Below are positions 3,763 to 50,300 of a stretch of 52,505 nucleotides of DNA, piece by piece (within the stretch, counting starts at the first letter, position 1; each line of letters begins with the position of its first letter). Source of the stretch: Candidatus Omnitrophota bacterium (GTDB lineage Bacteria > Omnitrophota > Gorgyraeia > M55B152); contig JAGYNU010000002.1 in the NCBI GenBank assembly GCA_018399975.1, positions 1 to 52,505 on the forward strand, read 5' to 3'. The position numbers were made by a program, and so were the translations under genes. The notes under the pieces were generated by a model, which was given only the letters and a program-made list of their open reading frames with translations, was not told the origin of the DNA and ran no database searches.

Positions 3763-3866
3763 TTTTAAAAATAGATTTTCTTTAGGATAAGTAGATAAAT
3801 ACACCCAAGAAATTATATCTCAGCCTACTCGAATTGAAATCCATTATATCATTTAACTTAAAATGG

Positions 3867-4089
3867 AACCCCACGGGGCAAGCCCTGTGAAATATACTTT
3901 TGTATTTCACGGGGCAAGCCCGTGGTACCTTTATGTACCCGTCTTCGCCAAACACTTATTGTGTTTGGCTTCGCCGAGGTTATCCGCCAACACATTTAGG
4001 TGGCTCCTTCATTTGGTGACATCTCGCCGAAGCATAACTTTCGCATTCATCCACGGGGAAACCCGTGGTTTTCTGCGAAGGCGGATAAA
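3867..4089. repeat. 223-bp multi-hairpin interspersed element, copy A
   Basis: Near-identical to 16247-16469. Shorter derivatives lie at 45643-45830 and 46160-46202. It is GC-rich relative to its surroundings and ends 5 nt from the stop codon at 4095. Confidence 0.9.
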
Positions 4090-7274: not shown

Positions 7275-7760
7275 TTAATATGTTATTGCTATTCGTTTAT
7301 CTCTTTCTACCTGTTCTAAAATATCTCCGTCTTCTTTATATTTCTTTAATAAAATATGAGTAACTGTTCCACTAACACCTTCCATAGGAGCCAACTTTTC
7401 CGCCACAAAATTAGATATAGTATGTATATCTTTTCCACAAACTGTAAGTAACAAATCATAAGTTCCAGAAAGTAAATAACAACTTACAACTTCAGGAAAT
7501 CTATAAATCTTCTCCGCTAAATAATCAAATCCTTTATTTTTTTGCGGAACCACATTAACTTCGATTAAAGCTCTTATTTCTTCTGAATCCGATTTCAATA
7601 AGTCTTTATTTATAACTGTCTTATATCTTACAATGACCCCAGCTTCTTCATATTTTTTAATAGCTTTCTTGATTCTATCTACCTTTTTATCAGTAACTTT
7701 AGCTATATCTTCAGGCGTCATTTTAGCATTCTGTTCTAATAACTCTAATATTTCATCCAT
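7275..7760 (-). CDS. Lrp/AsnC-family transcriptional regulator
   Basis: N-terminal HTH (LELLEQNAKMTPEDIAKVTD) and a C-terminal AsnC-type domain. A strong GGGAGG SD precedes ATG 7760. Confidence 0.75.
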   Translation of the reverse strand: MDEILELLEQNAKMTPEDIAKVTDKKVDRIKKAIKKYEEAGVIVRYKTVINKDLLKSDSEEIRALIEVNVVPQKNKGFDYLAEKIYRFPEVVSCYLLSGTYDLLLTVCGKDIHTISNFVAEKLAPMEGVSGTVTHILLKKYKEDGDILEQVERDKRIAITY

Positions 7761-7800
7761 TATAAAACCTCCCTTAATTTACTCACTTCGTTTGTAAATA

Positions 7801-7922
7801 CGCAGATTGGCACAGATTTTTAAAACACCACACAAGATTAGCACAGATAAATGATCAAGATACAATTATTTAATATTCAAACTAATACTTTTATTTGGTC
7901 ATTGTAATTTGGTTATTCTCAT
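7801..7922. repeat. ~125-bp conserved repeat core, copy I (CACAGAT words ... ATTCTCATG)
   Basis: Aligns with 17089-17229 and 27921-28050 with only a few substitutions or small indels. A partial copy lies at 41840-41890. Confidence 0.9.
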
Positions 7923-8185
7923 GTCCTATGTCCTAGGTCCTATGTCCTAGGTCCTATGTCTTGCTACTTGCTACTTGCTACTTGTTACTTGTTACTTGCT
8001 ACTTGTTACTTGCTACTTGTTACTTGTTACCTGTTACCTGTTACCTGTAACCTGTAGCTTGTAGCTTGTTTTTCGTCATTCGTCATTCGCCTGCCTGCCG
8101 GCAGGCAGGGATTTCGTCATTTGTTTGTTACTTGTTACTTGTTACCTGTTACCTGTAACCTGTAGCTTGCAGCTTGTAGCTTGTA
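7922..8185. repeat. Phase-locked tandem heptamer arrays (TGTCCTA > CTACTTG > TTACCTG > TAGCTTG), split by TCGTCAT words and a palindrome
   Basis: 21 consecutive in-phase 7-mers at 7922-8068. A second array lies at 8123-8185. The region ends 10 nt before the stop codon at 8196. Confidence 0.9.
8090..8109. repeat. 20-bp perfect palindrome CCTGCCTGCCGGCAGGCAGG
   Basis: A second full copy lies at 17124-17143. Left-half copies lie at 17075-17088 and 27907-27920. It is absent from otherwise identical flanks at 28190-28200 and 41955-41965. Confidence 0.9.
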
Positions 8186-8195
8186 TACTCTGTTT

Positions 8196-8438
8196 TTAGT
8201 CAGGTGTATCTATAATTGCCAAATTATTTCCAACAACTACCTTTTCTCCTTCCTCGACACAACGCTCAAGAAGAACTCCTGCAATAGGACTAGTTATGCT
8301 ATAAGTATTCTCCGCAGAACTTATTTCTATTAAATCATCCCCTATTTCTATTTCTTCATCCTCTTCAAAATACCAGTAAGTAACAATGCCCTCTACTATT
8401 TCATCATTTATAGGAGAAAAACGAATTTCTTCCTCCAT
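8196..8438 (-). CDS. Lipoyl/biotinyl-attachment-like domain protein lacking the modifiable lysine (80 aa)
   Basis: The sequence EGIVTYWYF..IGDDLIEISSAENTYSITSPIAGVL..GEKVVVGNNLAIID aligns to the lipoyl-domain pattern, with E in place of the lipoyl-lysine. AAAGGAGA SD is present and the start is coupled to the mdh stop. Confidence 0.6.
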   Translation of the reverse strand: MEEEIRFSPINDEIVEGIVTYWYFEEDEEIEIGDDLIEISSAENTYSITSPIAGVLLERCVEEGEKVVVGNNLAIIDTPD

Positions 8439-16208: not shown

Positions 16209-16246
16209 ACGAATTTCCTCCCAATAAAAATTCTAAAAAATAATGA

Positions 16247-16469
16247 AACCCCACGGAGCAAACCCTGTGAAATATACTTTTGTATTTCACGGGGCAAGCC
16301 CGTGATACCTTTATGTACCCGTCTTCGCCAAACACTTATTGCGTTTGGCTTCGCCGAGGTTATCCGCCAACATATTCAGGTGGCTCCTTCATTTGGTGAT
16401 ATCTCGCCGAAGCATAACTTTCGCATTCATCCATGGGTAAACCCGTGGTTTTCTGCGAAGGCGGATAAA
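16247..16469. repeat. 223-bp multi-hairpin interspersed element, copy B (between rpsM and rpsK)
   Basis: Same length and orientation as copy A with scattered substitutions. It ends 6 nt from the rpsM stop at 16476. Confidence 0.9.
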
Positions 16470-16475
16470 TTATAA

Positions 16476-16853
16476 CTACTTCTTTTTACCCTTTTTAGAA
16501 CCAACAGTACGTTTGGGCCCTTTACGTGTTCTAGCATTAGTTTGAGTCTGTTGCCCACGCACAGGAAGCCCTTTTATATGCCTTAGTCCTCTATAAGACC
16601 TTATATCCTTTAATCTACGTATATTCTCTTGTGTTTCTCTTTTTAAATCGCCTTCAATTTTATAATCCTTTTGTATAACCGCAGTAATTCGAGAAACTTC
16701 TTGGTCATCTAATTTATCTGCCAATTTTCGAAAATCTATATTGGCTTTCTTTAATATATCTCTTGCTGCATTCTTACCAAGACCGTAAATATAGGTCAAA
16801 GCAATTTCTATATGCTTATCTTTAGGCACATCAACACCTGCTATTCTAGGCAT
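16476..16853 (-). CDS. rpsM: 30S ribosomal protein S13
   Basis: N-terminus [32 protein letters not shown] 7 nt upstream. Confidence 0.95.
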
Positions 16854-16868
16854 TACTTACTCCTTTTT

Positions 16869-16945
16869 TAATGAGAACATAACTTAGCGAACAAAGTGAA
16901 GCTAAGTTATTTGTTCGAATTAAATCCGCCATTTTTTGTGGCGGA
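16869..16945. repeat. Leader hairpin module (TAATGAG - bulged 12-14-bp hairpin - GAATTAAATCCGCC-loop-GGCGGA), copy at the rpsM 5' region
   Basis: Stem GAACATAACTTAGC / GCTAAGTTAT(TT)GTTC. The same architecture with different stems is found at 22645-22716, 41211-41288, 41299-41381 and 45544-45597. Confidence 0.8.
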
Positions 16946-17088
16946 GGCTATCTACTTCGTTTGTTTTTTAGATCAATTAGGTCAATCAGACTTCAGACAA
17001 CAGAGAACAGACAACAGATATCAAACTTCGTATCACAGAATTATGCATTTGCTTGTTTCGTCATCCATCATTCGCCTGCCTGCCGGCA

Positions 17089-17229
17089 AACACAGATTAT
17101 CACAGATTTTTAAAAGCTACACACCTGCCTGCCGGCAGGCAGGGATTATCACAGATTAATGATCAAGATACAATTATTTAATATTCAAACTAATACTTTT
17201 ATTTGGTTATTGTAATTTGTCATTCTCAT
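17089..17229. repeat. ~125-bp conserved repeat core, copy II (carries the 20-bp palindrome at 17124-17143)
   Basis: Aligns to copies I and III, except that an internal segment is replaced by GCTACACA plus the palindrome. Confidence 0.85.
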
Positions 17230-17420
17230 GTCCTATGTCCTATGTCCTATGTCCTAGGTCCTATGTCCTATGTCCTACTATGTCCTAGGTCCTATGTCTT
17301 GTTACTTGTTACTTGTTACTTGTTACCTGCTACCTGTTACCTGCGACTTGTAGCTTGTAGCCTGTAGCCTGTAGCCTGTAACTTGTAGCCTGCAACTTGC
17401 AGCCTGTAGCTTGTAGCTTG
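17229..17420. repeat. Tandem heptamer array, 27 units with one 3-nt slip
   Basis: Direct reading. It has the same order of word families as 7922-8068 and 28050-28178. It ends 2 nt from the rpmJ stop codon. Confidence 0.9.
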
Positions 17421-17422
17421 TT

Positions 17423-17536
17423 CTATCCTTGTCTCTGTTTATGCTTAGGATTAATACAAATAACTCTAACTACACCTTTACGCTTTATTATTTTACAATT
17501 ATCACACATTTTTTTAACAGAAGCTTTTACTTTCAT
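17423..17536 (-). CDS. rpmJ: 50S ribosomal protein L36 (37 aa, zinc type)
   Basis: Hand translation gives [37 protein letters not shown]. It is too short for the ORF track. It occupies the canonical position between infA and rpsM. Confidence 0.9.
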
Positions 17537-19241: not shown

Positions 19242-19321
19242 AAGTATCAAGTAGCAAGCAACAAGTATCAAGTAAGAAATTGTTTATACCAACTTGTTAC
19301 TTGTTACCTGAAACTTGTTAC
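19242..19321. repeat. Two heptamer-word blocks in opposite orientation (AAGTATC/AAGTAGC... then CTTGTTA/CTTGTTACC...)
   Basis: Read directly from the sequence. The blocks are partially complementary and sit in the secY-adk spacer. Confidence 0.7.
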
Positions 19322-22644: not shown

Positions 22645-22716
22645 AATGAGGTCATAATTTACGGAATTTTGTCGTAAATTATATGACCAAATTAATCCGC
22701 CAATTTTTATGGCGGA
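22645..22716. repeat. Leader hairpin module, copy at the rplF 5' region
   Basis: AATGAG, then stem GGTCATAATTTACG / CGTAAATTAT(AT)GACC, then AAATTAATCCGCC-loop-GGCGGA. Confidence 0.8.
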
Positions 22717-22881
22717 TGCTATCTACTTCGTTTGTTTTTTAGGTCAATTAGAGCAATTAGAAATTTTTCCCTTTCTATTTTTCCCTTTCGGCTTTCAGCT
22801 ATGAGCTTTTAACTATGAACTAAGAGCTCATTTATTTTTGTGGCGGAAGCTAAAAACCCATTTATCCTTATAACGAATAAT

Positions 22882-27003: not shown

Positions 27004-27828
27004 TTATTTTCTTCTCTTCACAATGTATTTATCAGAATATCTCTTCTTTTTACGAGTTTTTAACCCTTTAGTAATTTTGCCCCAAGGAGTAGTTGGATGT
27101 CTTCCTCCAGACGATTTTCCTTCGCCTCCTCCCATAGGATGGTCTATAGGATTTTTAGCAACTCCTCTCGTAGAAGGCCTTCGTCCTTTATACCTGGAAG
27201 CTCCAGCTTTTCCCTTAGATATCATTCTATATTCCGCATTACCTACTTCACCTACAGTAGCATAACAATCTAAACTAACTTTTCTAATTTCCCCCGAAGG
27301 TAATCTTACATGTGCAAAATCACCTTCCTTGGCCATTATCGTAGCATAAGCTCCTGCAGACTTAACAGCTTTACCTCCCTGTTTTTTTAAAAACTCTAAA
27401 TTATGTATAGGAGTCCCTGAAGGTATACGTCTTAAAGGTAAAGAATTCCCAATCTCAAGAGAAACATTTTCTCCGCTAACTACTTTATCCCCAGTTTTTA
27501 AACCTTTAGGCTGAATAATATATCTTTTTTCACCATCCTTATATTTCAACAGTGCAATGTGGCTTGAACGATTAGGATCATATTCAATAGCTATAACTTC
27601 AGCTTCCATATCATACTTATCTCTTTTATAATCTATTATACGGATTTTCCGTTTATGTCCACCACCTCTATGGTGCACTGTAATATGGCCATATCCATCA
27701 CGACCATCTATTCTCTTTTTTGATATTGTCAAAGACTTTTCAGGTTTCTTCTTTGTAATCTCACTAAAATTTGAAGAACTTTTAAATCTGCTACCAGATG
27801 TTGTCGGTTTATATTTTTTAATTCCCAT
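27004..27828 (-). CDS. rplB: 50S ribosomal protein L2
   Basis: Motifs HHRGGGHKR and [12 protein letters not shown]. Confidence 0.95.
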
Positions 27829-27920
27829 TTTATCTCACTTTGTTTGATAGAACACAGATTAAAGTTTACAGATTACAATAAAAGACTTTCTAATATCTGT
27901 CTTCCGCCTGCCTGCCGGCA

Positions 27921-28050
27921 AACACAGATTATCACAGATTTTTAAAACACCACACAAGACTAGCACAGATTAATGATCAAGATACAATTATTTAATATTC
28001 AAACTAATACTTTTGTTTGGTTATTGTAATTTGTTATTTGTCATTCTCAT
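27921..28050. repeat. ~125-bp conserved repeat core, copy III
   Basis: Aligns to copies I and II. It is preceded by the half-palindrome at 27907-27920. Confidence 0.9.
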
Positions 28051-28384
28051 GTTCTAGGTCCTATGTCCTAGGTCCTAGGTCCTATGTCCTATGTCTTGCT
28101 ACTTGTTACTTGTTACCTGTTACCTGCTACTTGCAGCCTGCAGTTTGTAGCTTGCAGCCTGCAGCTTGTAGCTTGCAATTCGTCATTCGTCATTCTGATT
28201 TCGTCATTTGTTTGTAACTTGCAATTTGCAATTTGTTTGTAATTTGTTATTTGTCATTTGTAATTTACTTGTATCTTGTATCTTGTATCTTGTTACTTGT
28301 ATCTTGCCTGCCCCGTAGCACCCGCAGGGTTGGTACGGAGTTTTCTGTTTTCTGTTTTCTGTCTTCTGTTTTCTGTTTTCTGTC
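28050..28384. repeat. Heptamer arrays (TGTCCTA > CTACTTG > TTACCTG > CAGCCTG > TCGTCAT words > TGCAATT/TGTAATT/TGTATCT), one GC hairpin (28311-28340), then a TTCTGTT array abutting the rplW stop
   Basis: The 7-nt period is readable over more than 250 nt. This is the spacer between rplW and rplB. Confidence 0.9.
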
Positions 28385-28669
28385 TTATGTTACATCTATA
28401 GTATGTCCTTTTTCTAAAGTTACTATTGCCTTTTTCCAATCTCGTCTTTTTCCTTCTTTAAAACGCACTCTTCTCTTTTTGCCATACATATTTATAGTAT
28501 TAACATTTTTCACTTTAACAGAATATATTTTTTCGACAGCTTCCTTTACCTGTATTTTATTAGCAAATTTCTGGATAACAAAAAGGTATTGATTGTCCTG
28601 TAGCATTCGAGTCCCCTTCTCAGTTCTCATCATGCTAAATAAAATATCATAACAATCTTCTTTCTTCAT
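28385..28669 (-). CDS. rplW: 50S ribosomal protein L23
   Basis: Motifs TEKGTRMLQDNQYLFVIQKFANK and WKKAIVTL. Confidence 0.95.
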   Translation of the reverse strand: MKKEDCYDILFSMMRTEKGTRMLQDNQYLFVIQKFANKIQVKEAVEKIYSVKVKNVNTINMYGKKRRVRFKEGKRRDWKKAIVTLEKGHTIDVT

Positions 28670-33436: not shown

Positions 33437-36400
33437 TTATTTATCATTTACTGTTTCTTTTTCTTGCTCATTATTAGAATCTTTCTGTTTTTCAATTTCT
33501 CCTATTAACGAAGAAACATCTTTCTTTACCTTAATTTCACGATTTTGCCTAAATCCTGTCCCTGCAGGAATTAAATGTCCCATTATAACATTTTCTTTAA
33601 GTCCATACAAGTTATCAGTTTTACCACTTGCAGCTGCATCCGTTAAAACTCTTGTTGTTTCCTGAAAACTAGCTGCAGATATAAAACTTTCTGTAGTCAA
33701 AGACGCTTTGGTAATTCCTAATAATAAAGGAGACGCGCTAGCCGGTTTCCCCTTATTTTCTCTAACTTTTTGATTTTCTTCTTTAAAACAAAATTTATCG
33801 ATATGTTGTCCAGGTAAAAAATCAGTATCTCCAGGGTCTTCTATCTTAACCTTTCTAAGCATTTGTTTTATAATTAACTCAATATGTTTATCATTTATTT
33901 TAACACCTTGTAATCTATAAACTTCTTGAACTTGATCTAATAAATATTTCTGCAATTCTTTTTCACCGCGTATGTTAAGGATATCATCAGGAACTATTGG
34001 ACCATCGGTTAAACGGTCCCCACTTGAAACCTTATCGCCTTTATATACATTTAAATGTTTTCCATGTGGAACCAAATACTCCTTTTTCATTCCAGAAGGC
34101 GATTGAATTATAACCCTTCTTTGCCCACGTTTAGCACTACCAAATTCCACTACACCATCGATTTCACTAATTACTGCGGGGTTTTTTGGCTTTCGGGCTT
34201 CAAACAGTTCTGCAACCCTTGGTAATCCTCCTGTAATATCTCTAGTTTTGGTAACTTTTCTAGGAGTTTTTGCCAAGATAGTCCCAGCTTTAACTTTTTG
34301 ATTTTCCTTTACTGCGATATGAGCTCCAGCTGGTAATGGATAAATAGCCACAACATTATTCTTTTTATCCAAAATTAATATCTGCGGATGGAAATCCACA
34401 GAATGTTCTATAATAACTTGTCCAGTTATACCTGTAGCCTCATCAATTTCTCTATGAGAGGTCTTACCATCAACAATATCCTCAAATTCTATCTTACCTT
34501 CTACTTCTGTTAGTATAGGAGACGAATAAGGATCCCATTCTACAAACTTATCACCTTTTTGAACTTTATCTGACTCTTTTACATTTAAAAATGCACCTTG
34601 TGGAATAACATGTCGTTCTAATTCAATGCCTTCTTCATCATTTATACTAATTTGAGAATTTCGATTAAGAACTATAAACTTTTTCTTTGAAACAGAAACT
34701 ATTCTTAATCCATGAAATACTATTTTCCCATCATGCTTAGATTCTATAAAAGATTGCTCCACAATTCTACTAGCAGTTCCTCCAATATGAAAAGTTCTCA
34801 TAGTTAACTGAGTACCAGGCTCTCCAATTGACTGAGCAGCAATTACACCTACAGCCTCTCCTGCTTCTACAAGACGACCATTTGATAAACTAGTACCATA
34901 ACATTTCGAACAAACGCCCCTTGAAGCTTCACAGGTTAGAACACTTCTAATTTTTATTTTTTCGATACCTAATTCCTGAATCCTATTTGCTTTCTTCTCT
35001 GTTATAACTTCACCCGATTTTACTATTACTTCATCTGAAACAACATCAACTATGTTATCAGCAGCAACTCTACCTACAATTCTTTCCTTTAAACTTACTA
35101 CTATTTCATCACCTTCCACGATGGCTTCTACATAAATGCCATTTAAAGTGCCGCAATCTTCCTCAGTAACAATAACATCTTGTGCAACATCGACTAAACG
35201 TCTTGTTAAATAACCTGAGTCAGCTGTTTTTAAAGCCGTATCAGCTAATCCTTTTCTACCCCCATGAGATGAAATAAAATATTCTAATGAAGTTAATCCC
35301 TCTCTAAAACTCGAAATAACAGGACTTTCTATAATTTCTCCTGAAGGTTTAGCCATTAAACCTCTCATACCTACTAATTGTCGAATTTGTTGTTTAGAAC
35401 CCCTTGCTCCTGAATCAGCCATCATAAATAAAGGATTAAATTTATCTAAATGTTTAAAAACTGAATCGGAAACCTGTTCTGTAACATGAGTCCATATATC
35501 TACTATTTTATTATAACGCTCCCCTGCCGTTATTATCCCTTGCTCGTAAGATTTCTCAACTTCGCCAACTTTTTTATAAGCTTCCGTTACAAGTTCTTCT
35601 TTATCTTCTGGAATAACTAAATCACTAATAGACAAAGAAGCTCCTGAATAAGTAGCTTCTTTAAAACCTTTTTCTTTAACTTTATCCAATAATTTAACAA
35701 CCGCATCATATCCAAATTCTTCATAACAGTTTTTTATTACATCAGATAAAGCTGATTTATTTAACAATTTGTTAACAAAATTCATTTCTTTAGGCAAAAT
35801 ATCATTAAAAAGTACTTTACCAACAGTTGTTTCAATTAATTCAGAATTTATTCTTACTTTTATACTTGCATGCATATGTACTGCTCCATCTTCATATGCA
35901 GAAATGACTTCAGCAGTGTTAGAAAACATTTTACCTTCGCCTTTAACACCTTTTCTCATCTTCGTAAGATAATACAAACCAAGCACTATATCCTGCGTTG
36001 GAGAAACAATCGGACCTCCATGAGCAGGAGAAAATATGTTGTTACTGGATAACATCATTAATCTGGCTTCCATTTTAGCTTCAGCAGATAAAGGAACATG
36101 TACAGCCATTTGGTCACCATCAAAATCTGCATTAAAAGGCGTGCAAACCAATGGATGCACTTTTATAGCTTTACCTTCTACTAAAATAGGCTGAAATGCT
36201 TGTATTCCTAATCTATGTAAAGTAGGTGCACGATTCAATAATACTGGATGCCCCTTAATAACCTCATCTAATATATCCCATACTTCTACTTCTGTACGTT
36301 CTACCATTTTCCGAGCGCTTTTAATAGTATGGACATGCCCTCTCTTCTTTAATTCCTTTATAATAAAAGGCTCAAATAATTCTAAAGCAATTCTTTTTGG

Positions 36401-39400
36401 CAAACCACATTGATGCAATTGCAATTCCGGCCCAATGACTATAACGCTCCTACCAGAATAATCTACTCTTTTACCTAATAGATTTTGTCTAAATCTACCT
36501 TGTTTACCTTTAAGCATTTCACTTAAAGATTTTAGAGGCCTATTACCTGCCCCCATAACGGGACGGCCATGTCTTCCATTATCAAACAAAGCATCAACAG
36601 CTTCCTGTAACATCCTTTTTTCATTTCTAATTATTATCTCAGGAGCATTAAGTTCCATTAATTTCTTTAGGCGGTTATTTCTATTAATCACTCTTCTATA
36701 CAAATCATTTAAATCACTAGTAGCAAATCTCCCTCCATCTAAAGGAACTAAAGGCCTTAAATCCGGAGGGATAACAGGAATAACGTCCATAACCATCCAA
36801 GATGGTTCATTCCCTGACTTTTTAAAAGATTCTACAATTCTTAATCTTTTCAATACTTTTTTTCTAACTTGTTTACCACGTTTTCTCTTAGCTTTACTAT
36901 GCAAATCAGTTGCTAATTCATTTAAATCTAAATTCCCCAACAATTCTCTTATAGCTTCTGCTCCCATTTTAGCAGTAAAGCTTTTACTATATTTAGCCTT
37001 TGCCTCTCTATATTTGTTTTCTGATAATAAATCTCCTGTTTTAAAAGGACTATCTCCCGGGTCTATTACACAATACTCCTCGTAATAAATAACCCGTTCT
37101 AATTGTCTCATACTCATGCCTAATAAAGCTCCCATTCTAGAAGGCATAGTCTTAAAAAACCATATATGAGAAACAGGAGAAGCAAGTTCTATATGCCCCA
37201 TCCTTTTCCTTCTGACATCAGATGTGGTAACTTCAACCCCGCATCTGTCGCATATTATCCCTTTATTTTTTATTCTCTTATATTTTCCACAATAACATTC
37301 CCAGTCTTTGGTAGGACCAAAAATCCTTTCGCAAAATAAGCCTCCTTTTTCTGTTTTTAATGTTCTATAATTAATAGTTTCTGGTTTTGTTACTTCACCA
37401 TGAGACCAAGATCGAATCACATCAGAAGAAGCTATATTTATACGTATAGAATTAAAATCACCATCTTTTGATATAGAATCTTTGTCAAAATCTTGCTCTG
37501 TACGAATATCTAAAGCCAAACCCATAAGTTCTTTAATCAATACATTAAAAGATTCAGGTGTCCCTGTTTGCAAAGAACAATCGCCTTTTACAATATTCTC
37601 GTATATACGAGTGCGTCCTTTAACATCATCACTCTTAACTGTCAATAACTCCTGTAACATATAAGCAGCACCATAAGCTTCAAGTGCCCATACCTCCATT
37701 TCCCCGAATCTCTGCCCTCCGTATTGAGCTCTACCTCCTAAAGGCTGCTGTGTAACCAAAGAATAAGGGCCAATAGAACGAGCATGAATCTTTTCATCAG
37801 CTAAATGTATTAACTTCAATACATACATATAACCAACGGTTATTTTCTGGTCAAAAGGCTGTCCTGTTAAACCATCATAAAGTATAATTCTTCCATCTTC
37901 TGGCAACCCAGCCTTTCTTAACAATTCTTTTATTTCTTCTTCATTAATACCTCCAAAAACAGGCGTAGCTACATATTTATTTAATATCTCAGCTGCCCAT
38001 CCTAAATGAGTTTCTAAAACCTGTCCTATATTCATACGCGAAGGAACCCCTAACGGATTTAAAACCATATCAACTGGAGTTCCATCTGGTAAAAATGGCA
38101 TATCTTCTTCAGGCAATATTCTGGCAACAACCCCCTTATTGCCATGTCTACCAGCCATTTTATCTCCCACAGACAGCTTTCGTTTACTTGCTATATAAAC
38201 AACCACCCGTTTTATAACCCCTGGTGGTAATTCATCTGCTTTTTTCACCTTATCTATTTGTCTTTCTTGTTCATAAGTCAAATCATCTATTTGATCATTA
38301 AATAATCTTAAAACTTTCTCGATTTCTTCATTTATATCATCATTTTTTAATTCAATTTCATCTACATCACAATTGACTAATTTTTTAATATCAGTTTTAG
38401 TTATTTTCTTTCCCTTTTCAATAATAGGCTTACCTGTATTAATATCAAGTAAATCAGCAGCTAATGTATGGCCTTCTATTATTTCCCCTACTCTACTAAT
38501 TTTCCCCTTTAAAATATCATCAATTTTACCTTGATATTCTTCTTCAATTTCTTTTATACGAGCTCTTTCTTTAGACCTTTGAGATTTAGTGCGAGCAGGC
38601 TCCTTTCTGGAAAAAACTTTTGTATCTATAACGATACCTTCTACACCAGAAGGAACTTTTAAAGAAGCATCGCGTATATCTCCAGCTTTTTCGCCAAAAA
38701 TAGCTCTTAACAATTTTTCTTCTGGAGTAAGTTCTGTCTCCACCTTAGGAGTAATTTTCCCTACCAAAACATCTCCTGACTCTACTTTAGCTCCTACCCT
38801 AATAATCCCATCTTCATGTAAATCTTTTAAAGCTTCTTCTCCTACATTAGGAATATCTCTAGTAATCTCCTCTGCCCCTAATCTAGTATCTCTAGCTTCA
38901 ATCTCAAATTCTTCAATATGAACAGAAGTATAAACATCATCTTTAACTAACCGTGAACTAACTAAAATAGCATCTTCAAAATTATGTCCATGCCAAGACA
39001 TAAAAGCTACTAAAACATTTTTACCTAAAGCAATTTCTCCTTCTTTTGTAGCAGGTCCATCTGCTAATATATCTCCTTTTTTTACCTTAGCCCCAATAGA
39101 TGTCACTGACCTTTGATTAATACAAGTATTGGCATTAGAACGTTTAAATTTTTTTAGTTTATAATCTGTAGAACCAACTGTTATAGTACTACCATCTATA
39201 TAATTTACATTACCAGAATTTTTAGCTATAATTAAAGCTCCTGAATCTCTTCCAACTTTTTCCTCCATGCCGGTTCCAACCAATGGTGGTTCAGGAAATA
39301 ATAACGGAACAGCTTGACGTTGCATATTAGCTCCCATAAGAGCACGGTTTGTATCATCATGTTCTAAAAAAGGAATCAAACTGGCATCAACGCTAACAAT

Positions 39401-41194
39401 CTGTCTGGGAGAAACATCTATATAATCTATTTCTTTAGGAGATACACTAATAACATCCTGTTTATACCTACATTTTACTTGTTTATCCAAAAATTTTCCC
39501 TTATTATCTAACCTTGCATTGGCTTGAGCTATAATTTTGTTATCTTCTATATCAGCAGTTAAATACTCAACCTTTTTTGTAACTATACCTTTTTCAACCT
39601 TTCTATAAGGAGATTCCAAAAAACCCAATCTGTTAACTTTAGAAAATGTAGTTAAAGTTGTAATTAAACCAATATTAGGGCCTTCTGGAGTTTCAATAGG
39701 ACAAATCCTTCCATAATGCGAATGGTGAACATCACGGACTTCAAAACCAGCTCTTTCTCGGCTTAACCCCCCTGGGCCTAATGCACTAAGTCTACGTTTA
39801 TGTGTAGTCTCAGCTAAAGGATTAGTCTGATCCATAAATTGTGACAATCTACCTCTACCAAAAAAATCTCTAATTACCGATGATACTAACTTTGTATTAA
39901 CCAAGTTTTGAGGCATCATAGTCTCAGTATCATATATATTCATTCTCTCCCTAGCAGAACGAGCTACTCTCGCTAAACCTACCTGTATTTGATTAGCTAA
40001 AAGTTCGCCAACTGTCCTTATTCTCCTATTACCTAAATGGTCAATATCATCTACTTCTCCCTCTCCTCTTCTTAAATTCAAAAGATATTTTACAGCTTCA
40101 ATTATTACTTTTTTATCTAATTCTCTTTTATCATCAGAAAAATTTGTATTAAATTTTCGATTAATAATAAACCATCCAACTTTGCTCATATCATACCTTT
40201 TGGAGTCAAAAAACATTCTATTTAACAAAGATTTGGCATTTTCTTCAGTAGGAGGGTCTCCTGGGCGAAGCTTTCTATACAATGCCAACAAGGCTTCTGT
40301 TTGATTTTTGGTATTATCTTTCTCAAAGGAATTTCTAATTTCAACAAAATCATTACTAACTAATTTTATTTGCTTAACTTTTACATTTTTTAACTTGTTT
40401 CTAATCAACTTATTGGTAATTTTAGTTAATGCCGGAACAACTATCTTCTCCTTCTTTTCACCATTTTTATCCTCTAATATTGTTTCTTTAATAGGTTCTG
40501 CAAGCACTTTATCTAAATATTTTTTCCATTGTGAACTCCTCTTTATACTTACATTTTCTATTCCGCATATCTCTTTTAAAATATCTTGATCAGTCGAATA
40601 CCCAAGAGCACGCAAAAATGTAGTAAAAACAAATTTACGCCTTCTATCAATATAAACATTTAATCTATTTGATTTATCAAATTCAAATTCTATCCATCCG
40701 CCTCTATAAGGTATAATACGAGCAGAAAATATACTTTTCCCTCTAATTCTAGTTGTTTCACCAAATGACACTCCAGGAGATCTATGTAATTGATTAACAA
40801 CGACTCTATCATCGCCATTTATAATAAAATTACCTTCTTCGGTCATTAATGGCAAATCTCCAAAATAAACTTCTTGTTCTTTAATTTCTTTATCAGAACG
40901 TAATCTTATTTTTGCTTTTAAAGCACCTGCATAAGAAAAACTTCTTTCCCTAGCTTCTTCTTCACTATATTTAGACCTATCTATAGTGTAACTAATAAAT
41001 TCTAAAATATATTTACCATCAAAACTCTCTATGGGAAAAATATATTCAAAAATAGCCTGTAAACTTTTATTTTCCCTTTTCGTTTTAGGAACATCAAACT
41101 GTAAAAAATCCTCATATGACTCCACCTGAGTTGCAACTAAATTTGGCAAGCTAAAAACTTCTTTTGTTTTACCAAAATTTAGTCTTGTAATCAT
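33437..41194 (-). CDS. rpoBC: Fused DNA-directed RNA polymerase beta-beta' subunit (2585 aa)
   Basis: One uninterrupted 7758-nt ORF. Residues 1 to ~1234 carry beta motifs ([27 protein letters not shown]). Residues from ~1247 carry beta' motifs (zinc [14 protein letters not shown], catalytic [12 protein letters not shown]). The linker [12 protein letters not shown] is encoded at ~37455-37495. AAGGAGAGG SD precedes ATG 41194. Confidence 0.9.
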
Positions 41195-41210
41195 AATTAA
41201 TCCTCTCCTT

Positions 41211-41511
41211 TAATGAGACCATGATTTACACGACTATAAGGAGTGTAAATCATATGGTCGAATTAAATCCGCCAATGTTTGTGGCGGATATAGCCCACTA
41301 ATGAACACATGATTTAGAGAGTTCAAGCGAATCTAAATCATATGTGTGAATTGAATCCGCCGTAGCTTTAGCGTAGGCGGAAGTTCATAATTTACGGAAA
41401 TCCTGTCCGCCAATGTTTGTGACGAAAGCATATAACTTAGCGAATCCTTCGATTTTACTCAGGATAAACAAAGTGAAGCTAAGTTATATGACCGAATTTT
41501 ACCCGCCAAAG
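41211..41511. repeat. Four tandem leader hairpin modules (two full, one truncated, one long-loop) in the rplL-rpoBC spacer
   Basis: Module positions are 41211-41288, 41299-41381, 41385-41428 and 41429-41511. Each has a bulged hairpin with its own stem sequence plus a CCGCC-loop-GGCGG hairpin. Confidence 0.8.
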
Positions 41512-41712
41512 CTAAGCACGAAAAAAAGTAGATTAGCGTAGGCGAAAAACACTGAACCCTTTTAGGGTGAAGTGTCAAAAGATATATAAAACCAAAGATA
41601 CTTCGCTTTCCAAGCTCAGTATCCCTACCCGCCAATGTTTATGGCTGGAATCCCCACGTTTAGATTTCAAAAAAAAACTGTGTTTCTATGTTCTATGTCT
41701 GTTTTCTGTTTA

Positions 41713-41812
41713 CCCCATAGCATCCGAAGGATTGGTATAGGGTTATCTGCCATGAACCAGAGCAAAGCACGGTTCATGGTAACCCTAAACCGTACTACGT
41801 TCTGGTTTAGGG
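41713..41812. repeat. Cluster of three GC-rich hairpin modules
   Basis: 41713-41742 is a two-level hairpin, paralog 28311-28340. 41750-41779 is CCATGAACC/GGTTCATGG, paralog ~50192-50229. 41783-41812 is CCCTAAACC-GTACTACGTTCT-GGTTTAGGG, paralog 50229-50264. Confidence 0.8.
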
Positions 41813-41839
41813 CTGTTTTCTGTCTTCTGTTTACTTCGT

Positions 41840-42056
41840 AAACCACAGATTATCACAGATTTCTAAAACCACACAAGATTAGCACAGAAATTGAAACCTG
41901 CAGCCTGAAGTTTGCAGCATGTAGCTTGAAGCTTGCAGCTTGTTTCTTTTCGTCATTCGGATTTCGTCATTTGTCATTTGTTTTCTTTCTGTTTTCTGCC
42001 TGCCCCGTGAAATCTTATTTCTACGGGGTTATCTGTCTTCTGTCTTCTGAATAAAC
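41840..42056. repeat. Partial core, TGCAGC-type heptamers, TCGTCAT words, hairpin CCCCGT-N14-ACGGGG (42003-42028) and TCTGTCT units abutting the rplL stop
   Basis: Direct reading. The hairpin recurs as its exact reverse complement at 49998-50023. Confidence 0.85.
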
Positions 42057-42728
42057 TTACTTTAATTCTACTTTAGCACCTACGCTTTCAAGTTTAGATT
42101 TAACTTCTTCTGCTTCTTCTTTAGAAACTTGTTCTTTAATTGGTTTTGGTACAGATTCTACTAAATCTTTAGCTTCTTTAAGTCCTAAAGTAGTTATAGT
42201 TCTTATTTCTTTTATGACCTGAATCTTTTGCGAGCCCACCTCAGATAAAATTACATCAAAAATATCTTTTTCTTCTTCTTTTTCTGATTCAGCAACTCCT
42301 GTAGCACTTCCAGCGGCTGCCGGAGCTACTGCTGGGATAGCACTAACACCAAACTTTTTTTCTAATACTTTAACTAAATTGGAAAGTTCTATAACATTCA
42401 TTTTTTCAATAGAATTAACAATTTTTTCCATGTTTTCAGACATATCTATGTTTTCTTCTTCTACTTCTTGTTGAGTGTCATCTTTTTTCTCTTTTTCTGT
42501 GGTTTCAGCTTTTTTATCTTTTTTGGTATCAGATTCTTTTTTATCTGATTCTTTAATATTCTTATCCTCTTCTTTCTTACCTTTATCATCGATAGAGGAA
42601 TCTTTATCTTGTTTTTCGGTAGATTTCTTTGTTTTATCTGACACTTTTTCCTCTTTTTTCTTTTTTAGTTCTTTATCTTCGTTTTCTTTTGCTTTTTGCA
42701 CTTGTTTTGTTTCTTTTTCTTCAGCCAT
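42057..42728 (-). CDS. rplL: 50S ribosomal protein L7/L12 with ~95-aa Lys/Glu/Asp-rich N-terminal extension (223 aa)
   Basis: A canonical L12 sequence occupies the last ~128 aa ([29 protein letters not shown] ... [10 protein letters not shown] ... GAKVELK). A perfect AAAGGAGG SD precedes ATG 42728. No SD precedes the internal ATG 42443. Confidence 0.9.
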
Positions 42729-43990: not shown

Positions 43991-44153
43991 ACTGGTTTCT
44001 GGTTACTGGTTTCTGGTTTCTGGTTACTGGTTTCTGGTTACTGGTTACTGGTTTCTGGTTACTGGTTACTGGTTACTGGTTTCTGATTTCTGGTTTCTGG
44101 TTACTGGTTACTGGTTTCTGGTTTCTGGTTTCTGATTTCTGGTTTCTGGTTTC
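43991..44153. repeat. Tandem heptamer array ACTGGTT/TCTGGTT/TCTGATT (~23 units)
   Basis: Direct reading. It fills the whole rplK-rplA spacer and encodes the last 26 codons and the stop codon of the rplK ORF. Confidence 0.95.
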
Positions 44154-44585
44154 TATTATTTCTACCCCCATACTTCTAGCAGTTCCTTTAACTGTTTTAA
44201 TAGCAGATTCTAAATCTACCGCGTTTAAATCTTCCATTTTTTCCTTTGCTATCTTTTCTACCTGATTTTTAGTTAAACTGGCAACTTTTTCTTTATTAGG
44301 AACTCCAGAAGCTTTTGCTATACCACATTCTTTTTTTATCAAAACAGGGGTAGGAGGATTCTTAACTACAAAAGAAAAACTCCTATCTGCATAAATTTCT
44401 AATACAACAGGTAAAGTTAAACCCGGCCTATCTTTAGTTTGTTCATTGAATTGTTTGCAAAAATCCATTATTTTTACACCATATTGGCCTAAAGCAGGAC
44501 CAACAGGCGGCGCAGGATTCGCTTGCCCCCCTGGACAATAGAGCTTAAGTTTAGCCATTATTTTCTTTTTTTTCTTTTTAGCCAT
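44073..44585 (-). CDS. rplK: 50S ribosomal protein L11 with 26-aa repeat-encoded C-terminal tail
   Basis: Motifs [14 protein letters not shown] and [12 protein letters not shown], then [25 protein letters not shown] read from the heptamer array. Confidence 0.93.
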
Positions 44586-44692
44586 TTTATCTCACTCCGT
44601 TCGATAGAGTACAGATTACAGTTTACAGAAAACAGAATTCTATATTACACTAAATCCCAGGATTTTTTTATTTTTCTGTTATCTGTTATCTG

Positions 44693-45223
44693 TTAAATTT
44701 TTTCTACCTGCCAATATTCTAATTCCACAGGAGTAGACCTACCAAAAATCGATACAGAAACTCTTAATTTACCCTTTTCAGGTTCAATTTCTTCGATAGA
44801 ACCTGTAAAATTAGTAAATGGCCCATCTTTTATCCTAACTCCTTCTCCTGTTTCAAATTCTACTTTTGGGGTAGGTTTTTCTTTTTTCTCTTCTGTCTTT
44901 TTTAATATACCCTTAACTTCCTCTTCCTTTATTGAAACAGGACCTGCTCCATAGCCAACAAAACCTGTAACCCCAGGAATTCCTTTTATCAAATACCAAG
45001 TTTTCTCATCCATTTCTATGTTAACTAAAATATACCCTGGGAAAAATCTTCTTTCTGAAATTTTTTTCTCTCCATTTTTAACTTCAGATATTTTTTCTTT
45101 AGGAATAAAAACTTCCGAAATCTTATCTTCTATTTTATTTTGCTTAAATTTCTTTTCAATATGTGCTTTAACTTTTTCTTCTTGTCCTGTTAAAACATGT
45201 ATAATATACCATTTTTTTTCCAT
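44693..45223 (-). CDS. nusG: Transcription termination/antitermination factor NusG
   Basis: NGN domain WYIIHVLTGQEEKV and KOW GEGVRIKDGPFTNFTG. Its stop codon lies inside a TCTGTTA x3 array (44675-44695). Confidence 0.95.
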   Translation of the reverse strand: MEKKWYIIHVLTGQEEKVKAHIEKKFKQNKIEDKISEVFIPKEKISEVKNGEKKISERRFFPGYILVNIEMDEKTWYLIKGIPGVTGFVGYGAGPVSIKEEEVKGILKKTEEKKEKPTPKVEFETGEGVRIKDGPFTNFTGSIEEIEPEKGKLRVSVSIFGRSTPVELEYWQVEKI

Positions 45224-45543: not shown

Positions 45544-45597
45544 TAATGAGTACATCATTTAGCAAATCTAAATAAAGCTAAATGATATGCACGAATT
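45544..45597. repeat. Leader hairpin module abutting the 5' end of tRNA-Trp
   Basis: TAATGAG, then stem GTACATCATTTAGC / GCTAAATGAT(AT)GCAC, then GAATT. It lacks the CCGCC hairpin. Confidence 0.75.
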
Positions 45598-45642
45598 TTA
45601 CTCACTACCTAATTTTCTTGATTTTTAGACAATTAAAAATAA

Positions 45643-45830
45643 AACCCCACGGGGCAAGCCCTGTGGTACCTTTATGTACCCGTCTTCGCCAAACACTTAT
45701 TGTGTTTGGCTTCGCCGAGGTTATCCGCCAACACATTTAGGTAGCTCTTTCATTTGGTAACATCTCGCCGAAGCATAACTTTCGCATTCATCCATGGGTA
45801 AACCCGTGGTTTTCTGCGAAGGCAGATAAA
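45643..45830. repeat. Multi-hairpin interspersed element, copy C (188 bp, internal 35-bp deletion)
   Basis: Collinear with copies A and B, but lacks the segment between the two CACGGGGCAAGCCC direct repeats. Confidence 0.9.
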
Positions 45831-47557: not shown

Positions 47558-47620
47558 ATATAAGCTGATATAGTCAAAATCTCACAACTTTTTGTATTTA
47601 TTATGTATATAAGTTTTATT

Positions 47621-47648
47621 ATTATAAAATAAAAAATATATTTGTCAA
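47621..47648 (-). promoter_or_regulatory. Consensus sigma70-type promoter for tRNA-Thr-tuf
   Basis: On the minus strand, TTGACA (47648-47643) is followed by a 16-nt spacer and TATAAT (47626-47621). An A-rich tract lies upstream. The site is ~60 nt upstream of the tRNA-Thr 5' end. Confidence 0.6.
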
Positions 47649-47676: not shown

Positions 47677-49719
47677 TCATTTTTCCTTTTGTTTTTTTGA
47701 CTCCATTATAACTTTTTCAGCCAAATTAGATGGTATTTGCTCATAATGTGAAAATTTCATTGAAAAAGTTCCCCTACCACCGGTTATCGACTTTAACTCA
47801 GAAGCATATTTAAGCATTTCACTTAAAGGCACTTTTGCATTTATAACCTGCGTTAAACCTTTAGCTTCCATACCCATTATGCGCCCACGCCTAGAATTCA
47901 AATCTTTATTTATTTGTCCCATAAAATCTTCCGCAACCATAATATTAACATCCATAATAGGCTCCAATAAAACTGGCTTTGCCTTTTTTACTCCATCTTT
48001 TAATGCCATGGCACCTGCAATCTGAAATGCCATATCAGAAGAATCTACACTATGATATGAACCATCATACAAAACAGCTTTAAAATCTACCAATGGATAA
48101 CCAGCAACAACTCCCTCTTGCATAGCATTTCTTACACCTTTTTCTACTGAAGGAATATATTGCCTTGGGATAGCTCCTCCAGTAATACTATCTTCAAACT
48201 CAAAACCTTTTCCTCTTTCTAAAGGAACTAATCTTAAGCACACATCACCATACTGTCCATGGCCACCTGATTGTTTTTTATATTTATGTTGAATTTCCAC
48301 TGTAGACATTATAGTCTCTTTATAAGGAACTTTGGGAGTTCCTAATTTTACATTTACTTTAAATCTTTGTTTTAATTTACTTGCAGTTATTTCAAGATGC
48401 AAATTCCCCATACCTGAAATCAATAATTCTTTAGTTTGTGAATCTCTTGAAACTTTAAAAGTCTTATCTTCTTTTGTTATCTTTTTTAAGGACTGTGAAA
48501 TCTTCTTTTCATCTTCGCGAGACTCTGGAGTAATAGAATAAGATAATACAGGTTCAGGAAATTTTATCTCTGGAAAAACTATTTCTTTTGAACCATCACA
48601 AAAAGTATCAGATACATCGGTATCCTTTAACTTTGCAACCGCTACAATACTTCCAGCAATAGCAGTCTCTAAAGGTTTTTGCTCTTTACCCTGTAGCAAA
48701 TACAACTGGCCTAATTTTTCCACTGAAGATTTATTGATATTTTTAACTTGAGAATTAGAATTTACCTTACCAGACAAAACTCTAAATATTGAAAGTTGGC
48801 CTATATAAGGATCTATCTGTGTTTTAAAAACCCTTGCATAAAAATCAAAATCTTCTTTATGCTCGATATCAACTTTTTCTAATTCCTCACTATCTGTATC
48901 TTTTTTAACAAAAGCTTGGCTTGCCTTAACTTCACTTGGAGATGGTAAAAATTGAATCATATACTCGGTAAACTTATTTATACAACTTTTATTACCTGCA
49001 GAACCAGAAAATATTGGAATTATCTTGTTTTCTGAAACTGCTTTTTTCAATCCTATAGTCAATTGTTGTGTTGTTAATTCTCCCTTTTCTAAATATTCTT
49101 CTAATAAATCATCTTGAGTTTCAGCAATCGCCTCTATTAACTCTTCTCGTGCAGAAGATATATCTATATCTAAATTAGTTTTAATTTCATTATCAAATAG
49201 AGGTTGAGAATTATGATAATCCTTACCAACTCCATCTGGAATATTAAAAAGTATACAATTTTTACCAAAGTTCTTTTTGATTTCATCAACAATAACTGAA
49301 AAATTTATATTATCTAAATCAAGCTTATTAATAAAAATAAACCTGGGTAAATTCCTTTCCTTTAAAAAAGACCACATTTTCTCGGTACCTATTTCTACTC
49401 CGCTAGTAGCATCTACCAGAAGTATTGCAGAATCAACTGCTTCTAAGCTTGCGATAACTTCACCTATAAACTCTAAATATCCAGGCGTATCAATCAAATT
49501 AATAGTATAGTCATTTTGCGTAAAAGAAAAAATAGAAGAGTTAATAGATATTGCCCTTTCTTGCTCTTCTTGGGTATAATCGCTTACCGAAGTTCCTTCC
49601 TCGGCTTTCCCTAATCTGTCAACAATTCCAAAATTATAAGCCAACATATCAGTTAGCAAAGTTTTACCAGCTCCTGTATGAGAAACCAAAGCAATATTTT
49701 TAATTTTATCAACCATCAT
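47677..49719 (-). CDS. EF-G paralog (EF-G II-like translational GTPase, 680 aa)
   Basis: Five-domain EF-G architecture with divergent G motifs: VSHTGAGKT, DTPGYLEF (Tyr in place of the catalytic His) and NKLD. GGAGG SD upstream. Confidence 0.85.
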   Translation of the reverse strand: MMVDKIKNIALVSHTGAGKTLLTDMLAYNFGIVDRLGKAEEGTSVSDYTQEEQERAISINSSIFSFTQNDYTINLIDTPGYLEFIGEVIASLEAVDSAILLVDATSGVEIGTEKMWSFLKERNLPRFIFINKLDLDNINFSVIVDEIKKNFGKNCILFNIPDGVGKDYHNSQPLFDNEIKTNLDIDISSAREELIEAIAETQDDLLEEYLEKGELTTQQLTIGLKKAVSENKIIPIFSGSAGNKSCINKFTEYMIQFLPSPSEVKASQAFVKKDTDSEELEKVDIEHKEDFDFYARVFKTQIDPYIGQLSIFRVLSGKVNSNSQVKNINKSSVEKLGQLYLLQGKEQKPLETAIAGSIVAVAKLKDTDVSDTFCDGSKEIVFPEIKFPEPVLSYSITPESREDEKKISQSLKKITKEDKTFKVSRDSQTKELLISGMGNLHLEITASKLKQRFKVNVKLGTPKVPYKETIMSTVEIQHKYKKQSGGHGQYGDVCLRLVPLERGKGFEFEDSITGGAIPRQYIPSVEKGVRNAMQEGVVAGYPLVDFKAVLYDGSYHSVDSSDMAFQIAGAMALKDGVKKAKPVLLEPIMDVNIMVAEDFMGQINKDLNSRRGRIMGMEAKGLTQVINAKVPLSEMLKYASELKSITGGRGTFSMKFSHYEQIPSNLAEKVIMESKKQKEK

Positions 49720-49860: not shown

Positions 49861-50300
49861 TAATTGACCTAATTGACCTAAATTAGCTCATAGCTCTTAG
49901 CTCATAGTAAAGAAAGAAACAAGAAAGATACAAGATACAAGAAAGATACAAGTAACAAGTCGCAGGTAACAGGTAGCAGGTAACAAGTAATAAGTTACCC
50001 CGTAGAAATAAGATTTCACGGGGCAAGCAAGATACAAGATGCAAGATACAAGAAAGATACAATAACCAAGATACAAGATACAAACAAATTACAATATACA
50101 ATAAACAAATTACAAATGACAAATTGACCTAATTACTTTAAAACAAGTAGAGAGTAGAAAGTAGGAAGTAGAGAGACAAGGACATAGCCCGTGAACCAGA
50201 GATTTATTTTATAAATCACGGTTCAGGGCTAGGGTGAACCGTACTTCGTTCTGGTTCCCCCTAGGACATAGGACATGAGAATTACAAATGACAAATCAAG
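49861..50300. repeat. Repeat island in the divergent spacer
   Basis: Contains AATTGACC words and AGCTCAT heptamers. The CTTGTTA/CCTGTTA families and TGTCCTA-ATTCTCATG appear here as reverse complements. Also contains hairpin 49998-50023, AGTAGAG heptamers (50146-50187) and two GC hairpins (50192-50264). Confidence 0.85.

Follow-up and report, generated by a model that had tools for sequence, protein, structure and literature searches.

Arrays of tandemly repeated seven-nucleotide units have, to our knowledge, been known from cyanobacteria since 1990 and from giant sulfur bacteria since 2015, and their origin and function are still unexplained. This paper describes such arrays in a contig of a Candidatus Omnitrophota bacterium (GenBank assembly GCA_018399975.1, contig JAGYNU010000002.1, positions 1 to 52,505). 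This whole stretch of 52,505 nucleotides is called the window below. It contains islands made of heptamer arrays, small hairpins and a core of about 120 nucleotides (nt), located in the spacers between genes. These islands are probably a non-coding, lineage-specific mosaic repeat, a bacterial satellite of sorts, which is transcribed within operons and for which no function has been demonstrated.

Among the long simple-sequence repeats of prokaryotes, heptamers are the most frequent (PMC4679880). In the marine Beggiatoaceae, arrays of the unit TAACTGA precede start codons, mostly at close range, and some of these starts are in the interior of ribosomal protein operons (PMC4679880). The same repeats also occur in some Cyanobacteria and Bacteroidetes (MacGregor 2015, PMC4679880). 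The islands described here share much with the TAACTGA repeats: both consist of intergenic tandem 7-nt units close to starts, both are found in the interior of ribosomal protein operons, and both place stop codons on the sense strand. In both, mechanism and function are without explanation. The Beggiatoaceae arrays, however, have a single unit type, usually in 2-6 copies, and no shared core. Here there are at least eight families of unrelated units in a fixed order, together with a 120-nt core, hairpins and copying of whole blocks. None of the named heptamer families (TAACTGA, CCCCAGT, TTGGTCA, CAACAGT) is matched by units in the window.

The STRR repeats of heterocystous cyanobacteria were reportedly described by Mazel et al. 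in 1990. In Nostoc, contiguous heptamers near promoters affect the expression of a reporter (bioRxiv 10.1101/2022.06.06.494920). Like these, the islands are dispersed intergenic heptanucleotide arrays near promoters or starts, with several families per genome. They differ in phylum and in units, and STRR repeats are not known to form composites of fixed order that recur, together with a unique core, in essential operons.

A second group of relevant systems is that of the mosaic elements. The BIMEs of E. coli and the NIMEs of Neisseria are intergenic mosaics. The building blocks of BIMEs are imperfect REP palindromes, some 35 bp long and alternating in orientation, and BIMEs have a link to RAYT transposases. 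The BOX elements of Streptococcus pneumoniae have the structure boxA-boxB(n)-boxC, with modules of 45-59 bp, and are MITE-like (resembling miniature inverted-repeat transposable elements) with complementary ends. What the islands share with BIMEs and NIMEs is an extragenic mosaic of short modules, palindromes among them, in stereotyped order and variable number, transcribed within an operon. Unlike BIMEs, they consist mainly of 7-nt arrays in a single orientation, and their only palindrome is a perfect 20-mer that is either single or accompanied by a half copy, never in alternating pairs. No RAYT (TnpA-REP) transposase is present in the 52-kb window. With BOX the islands have in common a fixed module order, a variable number of internal units, an intergenic location and the potential to fold as RNA. 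Their units are only 7 nt long, however, and no terminal inverted repeats bound them. Judged by sequence, the islands thus combine start-proximal 7-nt arrays of the STRR/TAACTGA class with the stereotyped order of mosaics of the BIME and BOX type.

Three islands with one order of modules

An earlier note on this DNA had described three islands, here called I, II and III, that share one order of modules on the plus strand. Reading and aligning all three confirms this. The order is CACAGAT words, a core ending in ATTCTCATG, (T/G)GTCCTA units, one TGTCTTG, then YTACTTG, YTACCTG and YAGCYTG units. The islands can also be read in the sense direction, on the minus strand. Starting from the upstream stop codon, this gives CARGCTR, CAGGTAA, CAAGTAR, CAAGACA, TAGGACM and TGAGAAT. 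These are followed by degenerate ACAAAT units, the unique core AAAAGTATTAGTTTGAATATTAAATAATTGTATCTTGATCATT, ATCTGTG words, a leader and the start codon. Gene annotation agrees that the three islands lie upstream of the minus-strand starts of an lrp-like gene, rpsM and rplB, as the note had it.

The core is nearly identical in the three islands: it measures about 120 nt, and identity is 92-95% over ungapped columns. The longest run that is invariant in all three copies is 43 nt (permutation p ~0.018). Parsing the arrays in a 7-nt register reproduces the note's unit counts exactly, which in the plus-strand order of families are 5/1/9/3/2 for island I, 9/1/3/3/10 for island II and 6/1/2/3/6 for island III. 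The same parsing finds one CAGGTTA beside the 3-unit family of island I, and island II has one 3-nt partial unit besides its whole heptamers. Differences between the copies are almost entirely whole 7-nt units. This fits slippage, and with it the idea, also from the note, that the arrays expanded and contracted by whole heptamers.

The same repeat families were recovered independently by repeat finding and by Tandem Repeats Finder (TRF). The islands are also uniformly oriented: the word AATCTGTG occurs 10 times where 1.3 occurrences are expected, and all ten are on the minus (sense) strand and inside islands I-IV. On the sense strand, the arrays are 64-67% purine.

Taken together, the 92-95% identical core, the conserved module order and the common idiosyncratic variant strings mark the islands as paralogous copies. 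As far as sequence comparison goes, paralogy is established for islands I-III, and for part of the two further islands, IV and V, that are described below. The first interpretation, that of one composite element in three copies, is therefore supported in its paralogy. Its other half, a discrete element present three times, does not hold up, because there are also partial copies, a re-duplication and solitary arrays. Islands I-III are the fullest version of a mosaic made of modules.

Partial islands and other arrays

Across the window, the arrays consist of 2-23 head-to-tail copies of 7-nt units (TRF and register parsing). The families include CAAGTAA, CAGGTAA, CAAGCTA, TAGGACA, AAACCAG, ACAGAAA and TGACGAA. 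Interspersed among the arrays are GC-rich hairpin modules, one of which is a 20-bp palindrome, CCTGCCTGCCGGCAGGCAGG, that is treated separately below.

Island I contains its own partial repetition. A distal stretch repeats part of the array order, and it is 92% identical over 60 nt to positions 8010-8069. In island IV, between rplL and rpoBC, a CAAGCTR array runs straight into the core's distal half (TTTCTGTGCTAATCTTGTGTGG...ATCTGTGATAATCTGTG), and there are additional TGACGAA words, a hairpin and ACAGAAG units. Island V does without the unique core. It holds TAGCTCA, CAAGATA, CAAGTAA and CAGGTAA units, a hairpin, ACAAAT units, (TAGGACA)2 and TGAGAAT, and it has TAGGACATAGGACATGAGAAT in common with the other islands. 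In addition, islands II and V share an idiosyncratic string, CAAGTCGCAGGTAACAGGTAGCAGGTAACAAGTAA, which is 92% identical over 52 nt. Relative to the gene downstream, every island points the same way. Island V is inverted, and so is the strand of its gene.

The large arrays are all in spacers between open reading frames (ORFs), with one exception. The 23-unit AAACCAG array between rplK and rplA replaces the normal stop codon of rplK, so that this ORF (44073-44585, minus strand) gains 27 codons on L11. Given that the ORF runs into the array, slippage there would alter the length of the C-terminus of L11. Smaller arrays were found by TRF at 1343, 9426, 19242-19321 and 44606-44695.

Several other repeats were encountered in the window. 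Two related double-hairpin modules, at 41740-41815 and 50190-50262, have the form CCCTAAACCAGAAC...GGTTTAGGG followed by an inverted copy, which makes them look like REP doublets. One of the two interrupts the TAGGACA array of island V. Another hairpin module, CCCCGTGAAATCTTATTTCTACGGGG, is common to islands IV (41990-42029) and V (49997-50036), in opposite orientation and with 90% identity over 40 nt. A similar hairpin, CCCCGTGG...CCACAGGG, is present in the rplW-rplB spacer of a relative (locus L001, 9886-9914).

A longer repeat of 260 nt has three sense copies, at 3830-4089, 16210-16469 and 45571-45830, which match the reference copy at 90% and 71% identity. Hairpins of the types CCACGGG...CCCGTGG and GGCGGATAA are abundant in this repeat, and rpsM and rpsK have one copy between them. 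The repeat has no match in Rfam, nor an nhmmer match in the loci that were fetched for comparison.

There is also a leader-like motif, composed of a CCGCCA...TGGCGG hairpin, ATTTAATTCG, a long bulged hairpin and CTCATTAAAGGAG. The arms of the bulged hairpin differ between copies, yet they stay complementary. The motif is found at 16854-16950, 22656-22725, 45545-45612 and, as three tandem copies, at 41195-41520. These sites are upstream of rpsM, rpoBC, rplF and tRNA-Trp. Other Omnitrophota have it too, in L001 (20431-20500 and 20766-20831) and in loci L145, L068 and L028.

Relatives and database searches

The host phylum is Omnitrophota. The best named homologues of the window's L2 protein are from that phylum, the top one being 80% identical. 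No exact match to this L2 is on record, and the collections searched contain no sequence from the same species. The relatives used for comparison are the loci with the closest L2 proteins, L001, L003 and L004, at 80, 78 and 76% identity respectively. Their gene order is that of the window, including a fused rpoBC gene.

The spacers are a different matter. The rplW-rplB spacer is 556 nt long in the window, versus 153 nt in L001, 10 nt in L003 and 112 nt in L004. Similarly, the rpmJ-rpsM spacer has 569 nt here versus 50 nt in L003. What arrays there are in the relatives are short and consist of other units (AAATTAC, CAGACAN and TAGCTTG-like), and one relative has the CCTGCCTGCCGGCAGGCAGG palindrome in its S8-L6 spacer. 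The core itself was not found elsewhere. A 27-mer from it has no match in GTDB genomes or JGI metagenomes, a 21-mer junction has none in viral contigs, and an nhmmer profile has none in about 280 fetched loci. Short spacers in relatives, and a core absent from the searched collections, mean that the islands are recent lineage-specific accretions, in spacers whose ancestral length was short, and not conserved regulatory regions.

More familiar identities were also considered. The islands are not coding, because the copies differ by multiples of 7 nt, which breaks any reading frame. The note had allowed for the core being a known gene fragment or the end of an insertion sequence (IS). It matches no known gene, IS or RNA family. 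An Rfam scan of the window returned just two tRNAs, and neither at the gathering thresholds nor at E <= 1 is there a match to an island core or array. The sole sub-threshold Rfam match in any island is Alpha_RBS (E = 0.12), in the rpsM leader of island II, where it overlaps a copy of the leader-like motif. The islands have no blastn match to plasmid or phage sequences.

An origin of replication near island V has been considered as well. GC skew flips sign near 50 kb (49000-51000), exactly at the gene-strand switch between a fusA-like EF-G gene and ftsA. There is no cluster of DnaA boxes there, and the origin was rejected. With up to one mismatch, the DnaA box TTATCCACA has 23 matches in the window versus 17 expected, without a cluster in any island. 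The coincidence of skew flip and strand switch does mean that transcription-linked and replication-linked island polarity are inseparable within the window.

Explaining the islands

In the satellite reading, each island would be a stack with a fixed polarity, in which heptanucleotide arrays are combined with small GC-rich hairpins and a unique core of about 120 nt. The arrays would gain and lose whole 7-nt units through replication slippage. Blocks of several modules would be copied between spacers, be it by recombination, gene conversion or some form of transposition. That blocks are copied is shown by the re-duplication within island I (92%) and the variant string of islands II and V (92%). 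Since the spacers they occupy include some inside essential ribosomal protein operons, they would be transcribed through as long, purine-rich untranslated spacers. They may be tolerated because they are read through without termination, and perhaps because they are looped out by pairing of their ends. Upstream CAGA-type words are predicted to pair with gene-proximal TCTG-type words, which would allow processing or simply tolerance. The uniform polarity would be held in place by a constraint that acts on the transcript or on the strand.

The predicted RNA structures are in line with this. Folding z-scores are -3.5, -4.1 and -4.6 for islands I, II and III. In the predicted fold of island III, the upstream (ACAGAAA)n pairs with gene-proximal UCUGU words. 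This design is clearer in shorter spacers. The nusG-rplK spacer is predicted to pair a 5' arm of (ACAGAUA)n with the 3' arm UUCUGUUUUCUGUAAACUGUAAUCUG (z = -3.5), and end-to-end folding is also predicted for the rplW-rplB spacers of L004 (z = -3.4) and L001 (z = -5.4). Terminator-like sites are absent from islands I and III. Island II has two, namely the palindrome with a T run and a CCGCCA hairpin.

Several things weigh against a satellite of this kind. Strict polarity and a conserved module order exceed the needs of a purely neutral repeat. The 43-nt invariant stretch of the core hints at constraint, or else at very recent conversion. The islands lack terminal inverted repeats and target duplications, and no transposase is encoded in the 52-kb window, which leaves the copying without a known mechanism. 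At the ends of island I there are no inverted pairs of 11 nt or more, islands II and III have only short internal pairs, and no island has flanking direct repeats. A MITE, including a BOX-like one, was rejected for want of such terminal repeats and target-site duplications. Array lengths do not vary between two pairs of relatives' contigs (L001/L002 and L004/L005), and slippage and length polymorphism of the window's own arrays are inferred. Finally, the end-to-end closure of the RNA is predicted from single sequences without covariation.

The islands could instead be promoter or regulatory cassettes, where a promoter or transcription-factor sites in the core and the ATCTGTG words would control lrp, the alpha operon and the distal S10 operon, and the upstream arrays would act as spacers or insulators. 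Every island is indeed directly upstream of a start codon, in one polarity, and islands II, IV and V are at positions where E. coli has operon boundaries. In islands II, III and IV, ATCTGTGATAATCTGTG contains an extended -10-like word, TGTGATAAT, but island I has GCCAAT there instead. The best core site, TTGTAT-17-TGtGATAAT in island II, scores 8.6 bits on a sigma-70 weight matrix, with weaker equivalents in I and III. It ranks 104 in the window, where the best site is the 13.1-bit promoter of tRNA-Thr. More generally, promoter-like sites in the islands (-35/-10, 16-18 nt spacing) are no commoner than in shuffled sequence. The note's question whether the core carries a promoter must therefore be answered, on these consensus scans and weight-matrix rankings, with no support beyond chance. 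In the genome of another Omnitrophota member (L150), ATCTGTGTAATC words surround the CCTGCCTGCCGGCAGGCAGG palindrome just upstream of a gene, and deletion of the Nostoc heptamers alters promoter activity (bioRxiv 10.1101/2022.06.06.494920). Yet the cassette is absent from the relatives' orthologous spacers, and the operon that surrounds island III is uninterrupted in a relative, where the spacer is 10 nt. From the sequences, a promoter or operator role for ATCTGTGATAATCTGTG-type words, or a weak internal promoter, is possible; that the islands as a whole are such cassettes is unlikely.

It is also conceivable, if rather improbable, that the islands work as a functional RNA platform. The arrays would then offer multivalent sites to RNA-binding proteins of the S1, CsrA or Csp type, or the stem would be an RNase III site that uncouples cistrons. 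(UAGGACA)n offers a repeated GGA, the polarity on the sense strand is strict, and predicted end-to-end stems recur in several spacers here and in two relatives. A translational role has been proposed for the TAACTGA repeats of ribosomal protein operons (PMC4679880). Unit sequences, however, are wholly different between relatives, so there is no conserved binding motif. Array lengths vary 2- to 5-fold between islands, the binding protein is only hypothetical, and the lack of covariation in the folds counts here as well. Far less credible is an assembly artefact, in which one repeat was collapsed or copied to three places. Arrays beyond short-read length and a 120-nt repeat are hard to assemble, and the exact unit counts could be wrong. 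Each island nevertheless has unique flanks and its own unit pattern. The canonical gene order runs across every island (rplW-rplB, rpmJ-rpsM, rplL-rpoB) and matches that of the relatives, which come from other samples and bear the same kinds of module at the same spacers.

The 20-bp palindrome

The perfect palindrome CCTGCCTGCCGGCAGGCAGG is present in the window as two full copies, in islands I and II, and two half copies, in island II and adjoining the core of island III (Table 1). Its distribution extends far beyond the Omnitrophota. Exact copies were found in at least 120 metagenome contigs, in at least 120 genomes that represent species, and in 35 viral contigs. By chance, a uniform 20-mer would have about 0.5 matches in 596 Gb. 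Among the matches listed are Patescibacteria, Bacteroidota, Omnitrophota, Planctomycetota, Pseudomonadota, Gamma- and Deltaproteobacteria, Bdellovibrionales, Thermodesulfovibrionales and Chloroflexota. Cultured Bacteroidota with the palindrome include Winogradskyella echinorum, Longitalea luteola, Flavivirga and Flagellimonas. Three control palindromes, two of matched composition and one with the same halves joined the reversed way, have no matches in the viral contigs. The plain (CCTG)5 microsatellite, for its part, is very common in viral contigs (IMG/VR, at least 120), where it frequently forms long runs or is found at the end of a contig.

The boundaries of the palindrome are sharp at 20 bp, and none of 242 sites has a target-site duplication around it. 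Its flanks are enriched for period-7 sequence. Exact tandem arrays in the loci that contain it number 19 for period 7, versus 0-4 for every other period, with units that differ between organisms. About 9% of the copies have inverted repeats of 8 bp or more on their two sides, versus 1.2% of controls, and in several unrelated contigs (L010, L120, L246) the palindrome is enclosed by arms of complementary heptamers. No gene family recurs near the palindrome in more than 7 loci (2160 ORFs clustered, 250 sites). Insertion into intact tRNA genes was tried as an explanation and dropped: removing the palindrome in silico restores no tRNA, and only tRNA fragments adjoin it. A general rule that arrays of other organisms have purines on the sense strand is not claimed either, as a small sample gave a mixed result. 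A full-text literature search with the central 12-mer returned no microbial paper, and no description of CCTGCCTGCCGGCAGGCAGG was found in the searchable literature.

The distribution of CCTGCCTGCCGGCAGGCAGG across phyla and viral contigs is unexplained, and it points to a common origin or mechanism. It is tempting, though quite speculative and on balance doubtful, to see the islands as an unusually large local expression of a cross-phylum system, in which this palindrome either seeds the heptamer arrays around it or caps them. If true, the sharp boundaries, the period-7 flanks and the complementary arms would together imply that hairpin-forming operon spacers are made by a dedicated mechanism, be it an enzyme or a mobile element, which spreads horizontally.

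Features and gene context

All features with their coordinates are listed in Table 1.

Table 1 Islands, arrays and their modules in the window. Units are written in the sense direction.
Feature	Position	Strand	Remarks
Island I, whole spacer	7761..8195	minus	
Core copy I	7801..7921	minus	sense TGAGAAT, degenerate ACAAAT-type units, AAAAGTATTAGTTTGAATATTAAATAATTGTATCTTGATCATT, ATCTGTG words
Island I, proximal arrays	7922..8070	minus	(CAAGCTA)2, CAGGTTA, (CAGGTAA)3, (CAAGTAR)9, CAAGACA, (TAGGACM)5
Island I, TGACGAA words	8071..8124	minus	around 20-bp palindrome CCTGCCTGCCGGCAGGCAGG (8090-8109)
Island I, distal partial copy of array order	8125..8185	minus	CAAGCTR, CAGGTTA, CAGGTAA, CAAGTAA
Island II, whole spacer	16854..17422	minus	includes leader-like hairpin 16854-16950 and half palindrome 17075-17088
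Core copy II	17092..17228	minus	split by full palindrome copy (17124-17143)
Island II, arrays	17229..17421	minus	10 CARGYTR, CAAGTCG, 3 CAGGTAR, 3 CAAGTAA, CAAGACA, 9 TAGGACM and 3-nt partial
Island III, whole spacer	27829..28384	minus	
Core copy III	27923..28049	minus	half palindrome adjoining at 27907-27920
Island III, arrays	28050..28177	minus	6 CARRCTG/A, CAAGTAG, 2 CAGGTAA, 2 CAAGTAR, CAAGACA, 6 TAGGACM
Island III, distal extras	28178..28384	minus	TGACGAA words, ACAAAT-type units, (CAAGATA)n, GC-rich hairpin, (ACAGAAA)n
Island IV, partial	41816..42056	minus	rplL-rpoBC spacer
23-unit (AAACCAG/TAACCAG) array	43992..44154	minus	fills rplK-rplA spacer
nusG-rplK mini-island	44586..44692	minus	5' arm (ACAGATA)n, complementary 3' arm of TCTGT words
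Island V, partial, inverted	49880..50300	plus	upstream of ftsA

The minus strand holds all genes from 1 to 49719, and ftsA (50400-51590) is on the plus strand. Besides housekeeping genes, the window contains the ribosomal clusters secE-nusG-rplKAJL-rpoBC, str, S10, spc and alpha. Each island fills its spacer between the stop codon of the gene upstream and the leader of the gene downstream. Island I is flanked by an ORF with a lipoyl domain (8196-8438) and the Lrp/AsnC-like gene (7275-7760), whose family assignment rests on scores below the NCBIfam cut-offs. The neighbours of island II are rpmJ (17423-17536) and rpsM (16476-16853). Island III is in the interior of the S10 operon, between rplW (28385-28669) and rplB (27004-27828), and its (ACAGAAA)n directly adjoins the rplW stop codon. 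The five islands, at 7.9, 17.2, 28.0, 41.9 and 50.1 kb, are fairly evenly placed, in steps of 8-14 kb, which with n=5 may be chance.

Some of the genes are unusual as well. The rpoB and rpoC genes form a single fused ORF of 2585 residues (33437-41194, minus strand), and this fusion is also present in L001 (2580 residues) and L003 (2579 residues). The rplL ORF (42444-42728, minus strand) has a Lys/Glu-rich N-terminal extension of 95 residues before the normal MSENMEKIV start. This is either an extended L7/L12 or a purine-rich, low-complexity spacer of 285 nt between rplJ and rplL. Upstream of tRNA-Thr and tuf there is a perfect sigma-70 consensus, TTGACA-16-TATAAT (47590-47630, minus strand), the top-scoring site of the window. 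From this it follows that the organism uses canonical sigma-70 promoters.

Implications

The islands make for an unusually informative case. Their unit families are ordered, they are copied as blocks, their orientation strictly follows that of the gene downstream, and they are found inside essential ribosomal protein operons that are contiguous in relatives. With this, transcription through arrays, operon polarity, RNA processing and the mechanism of copying become questions that can be tested directly.

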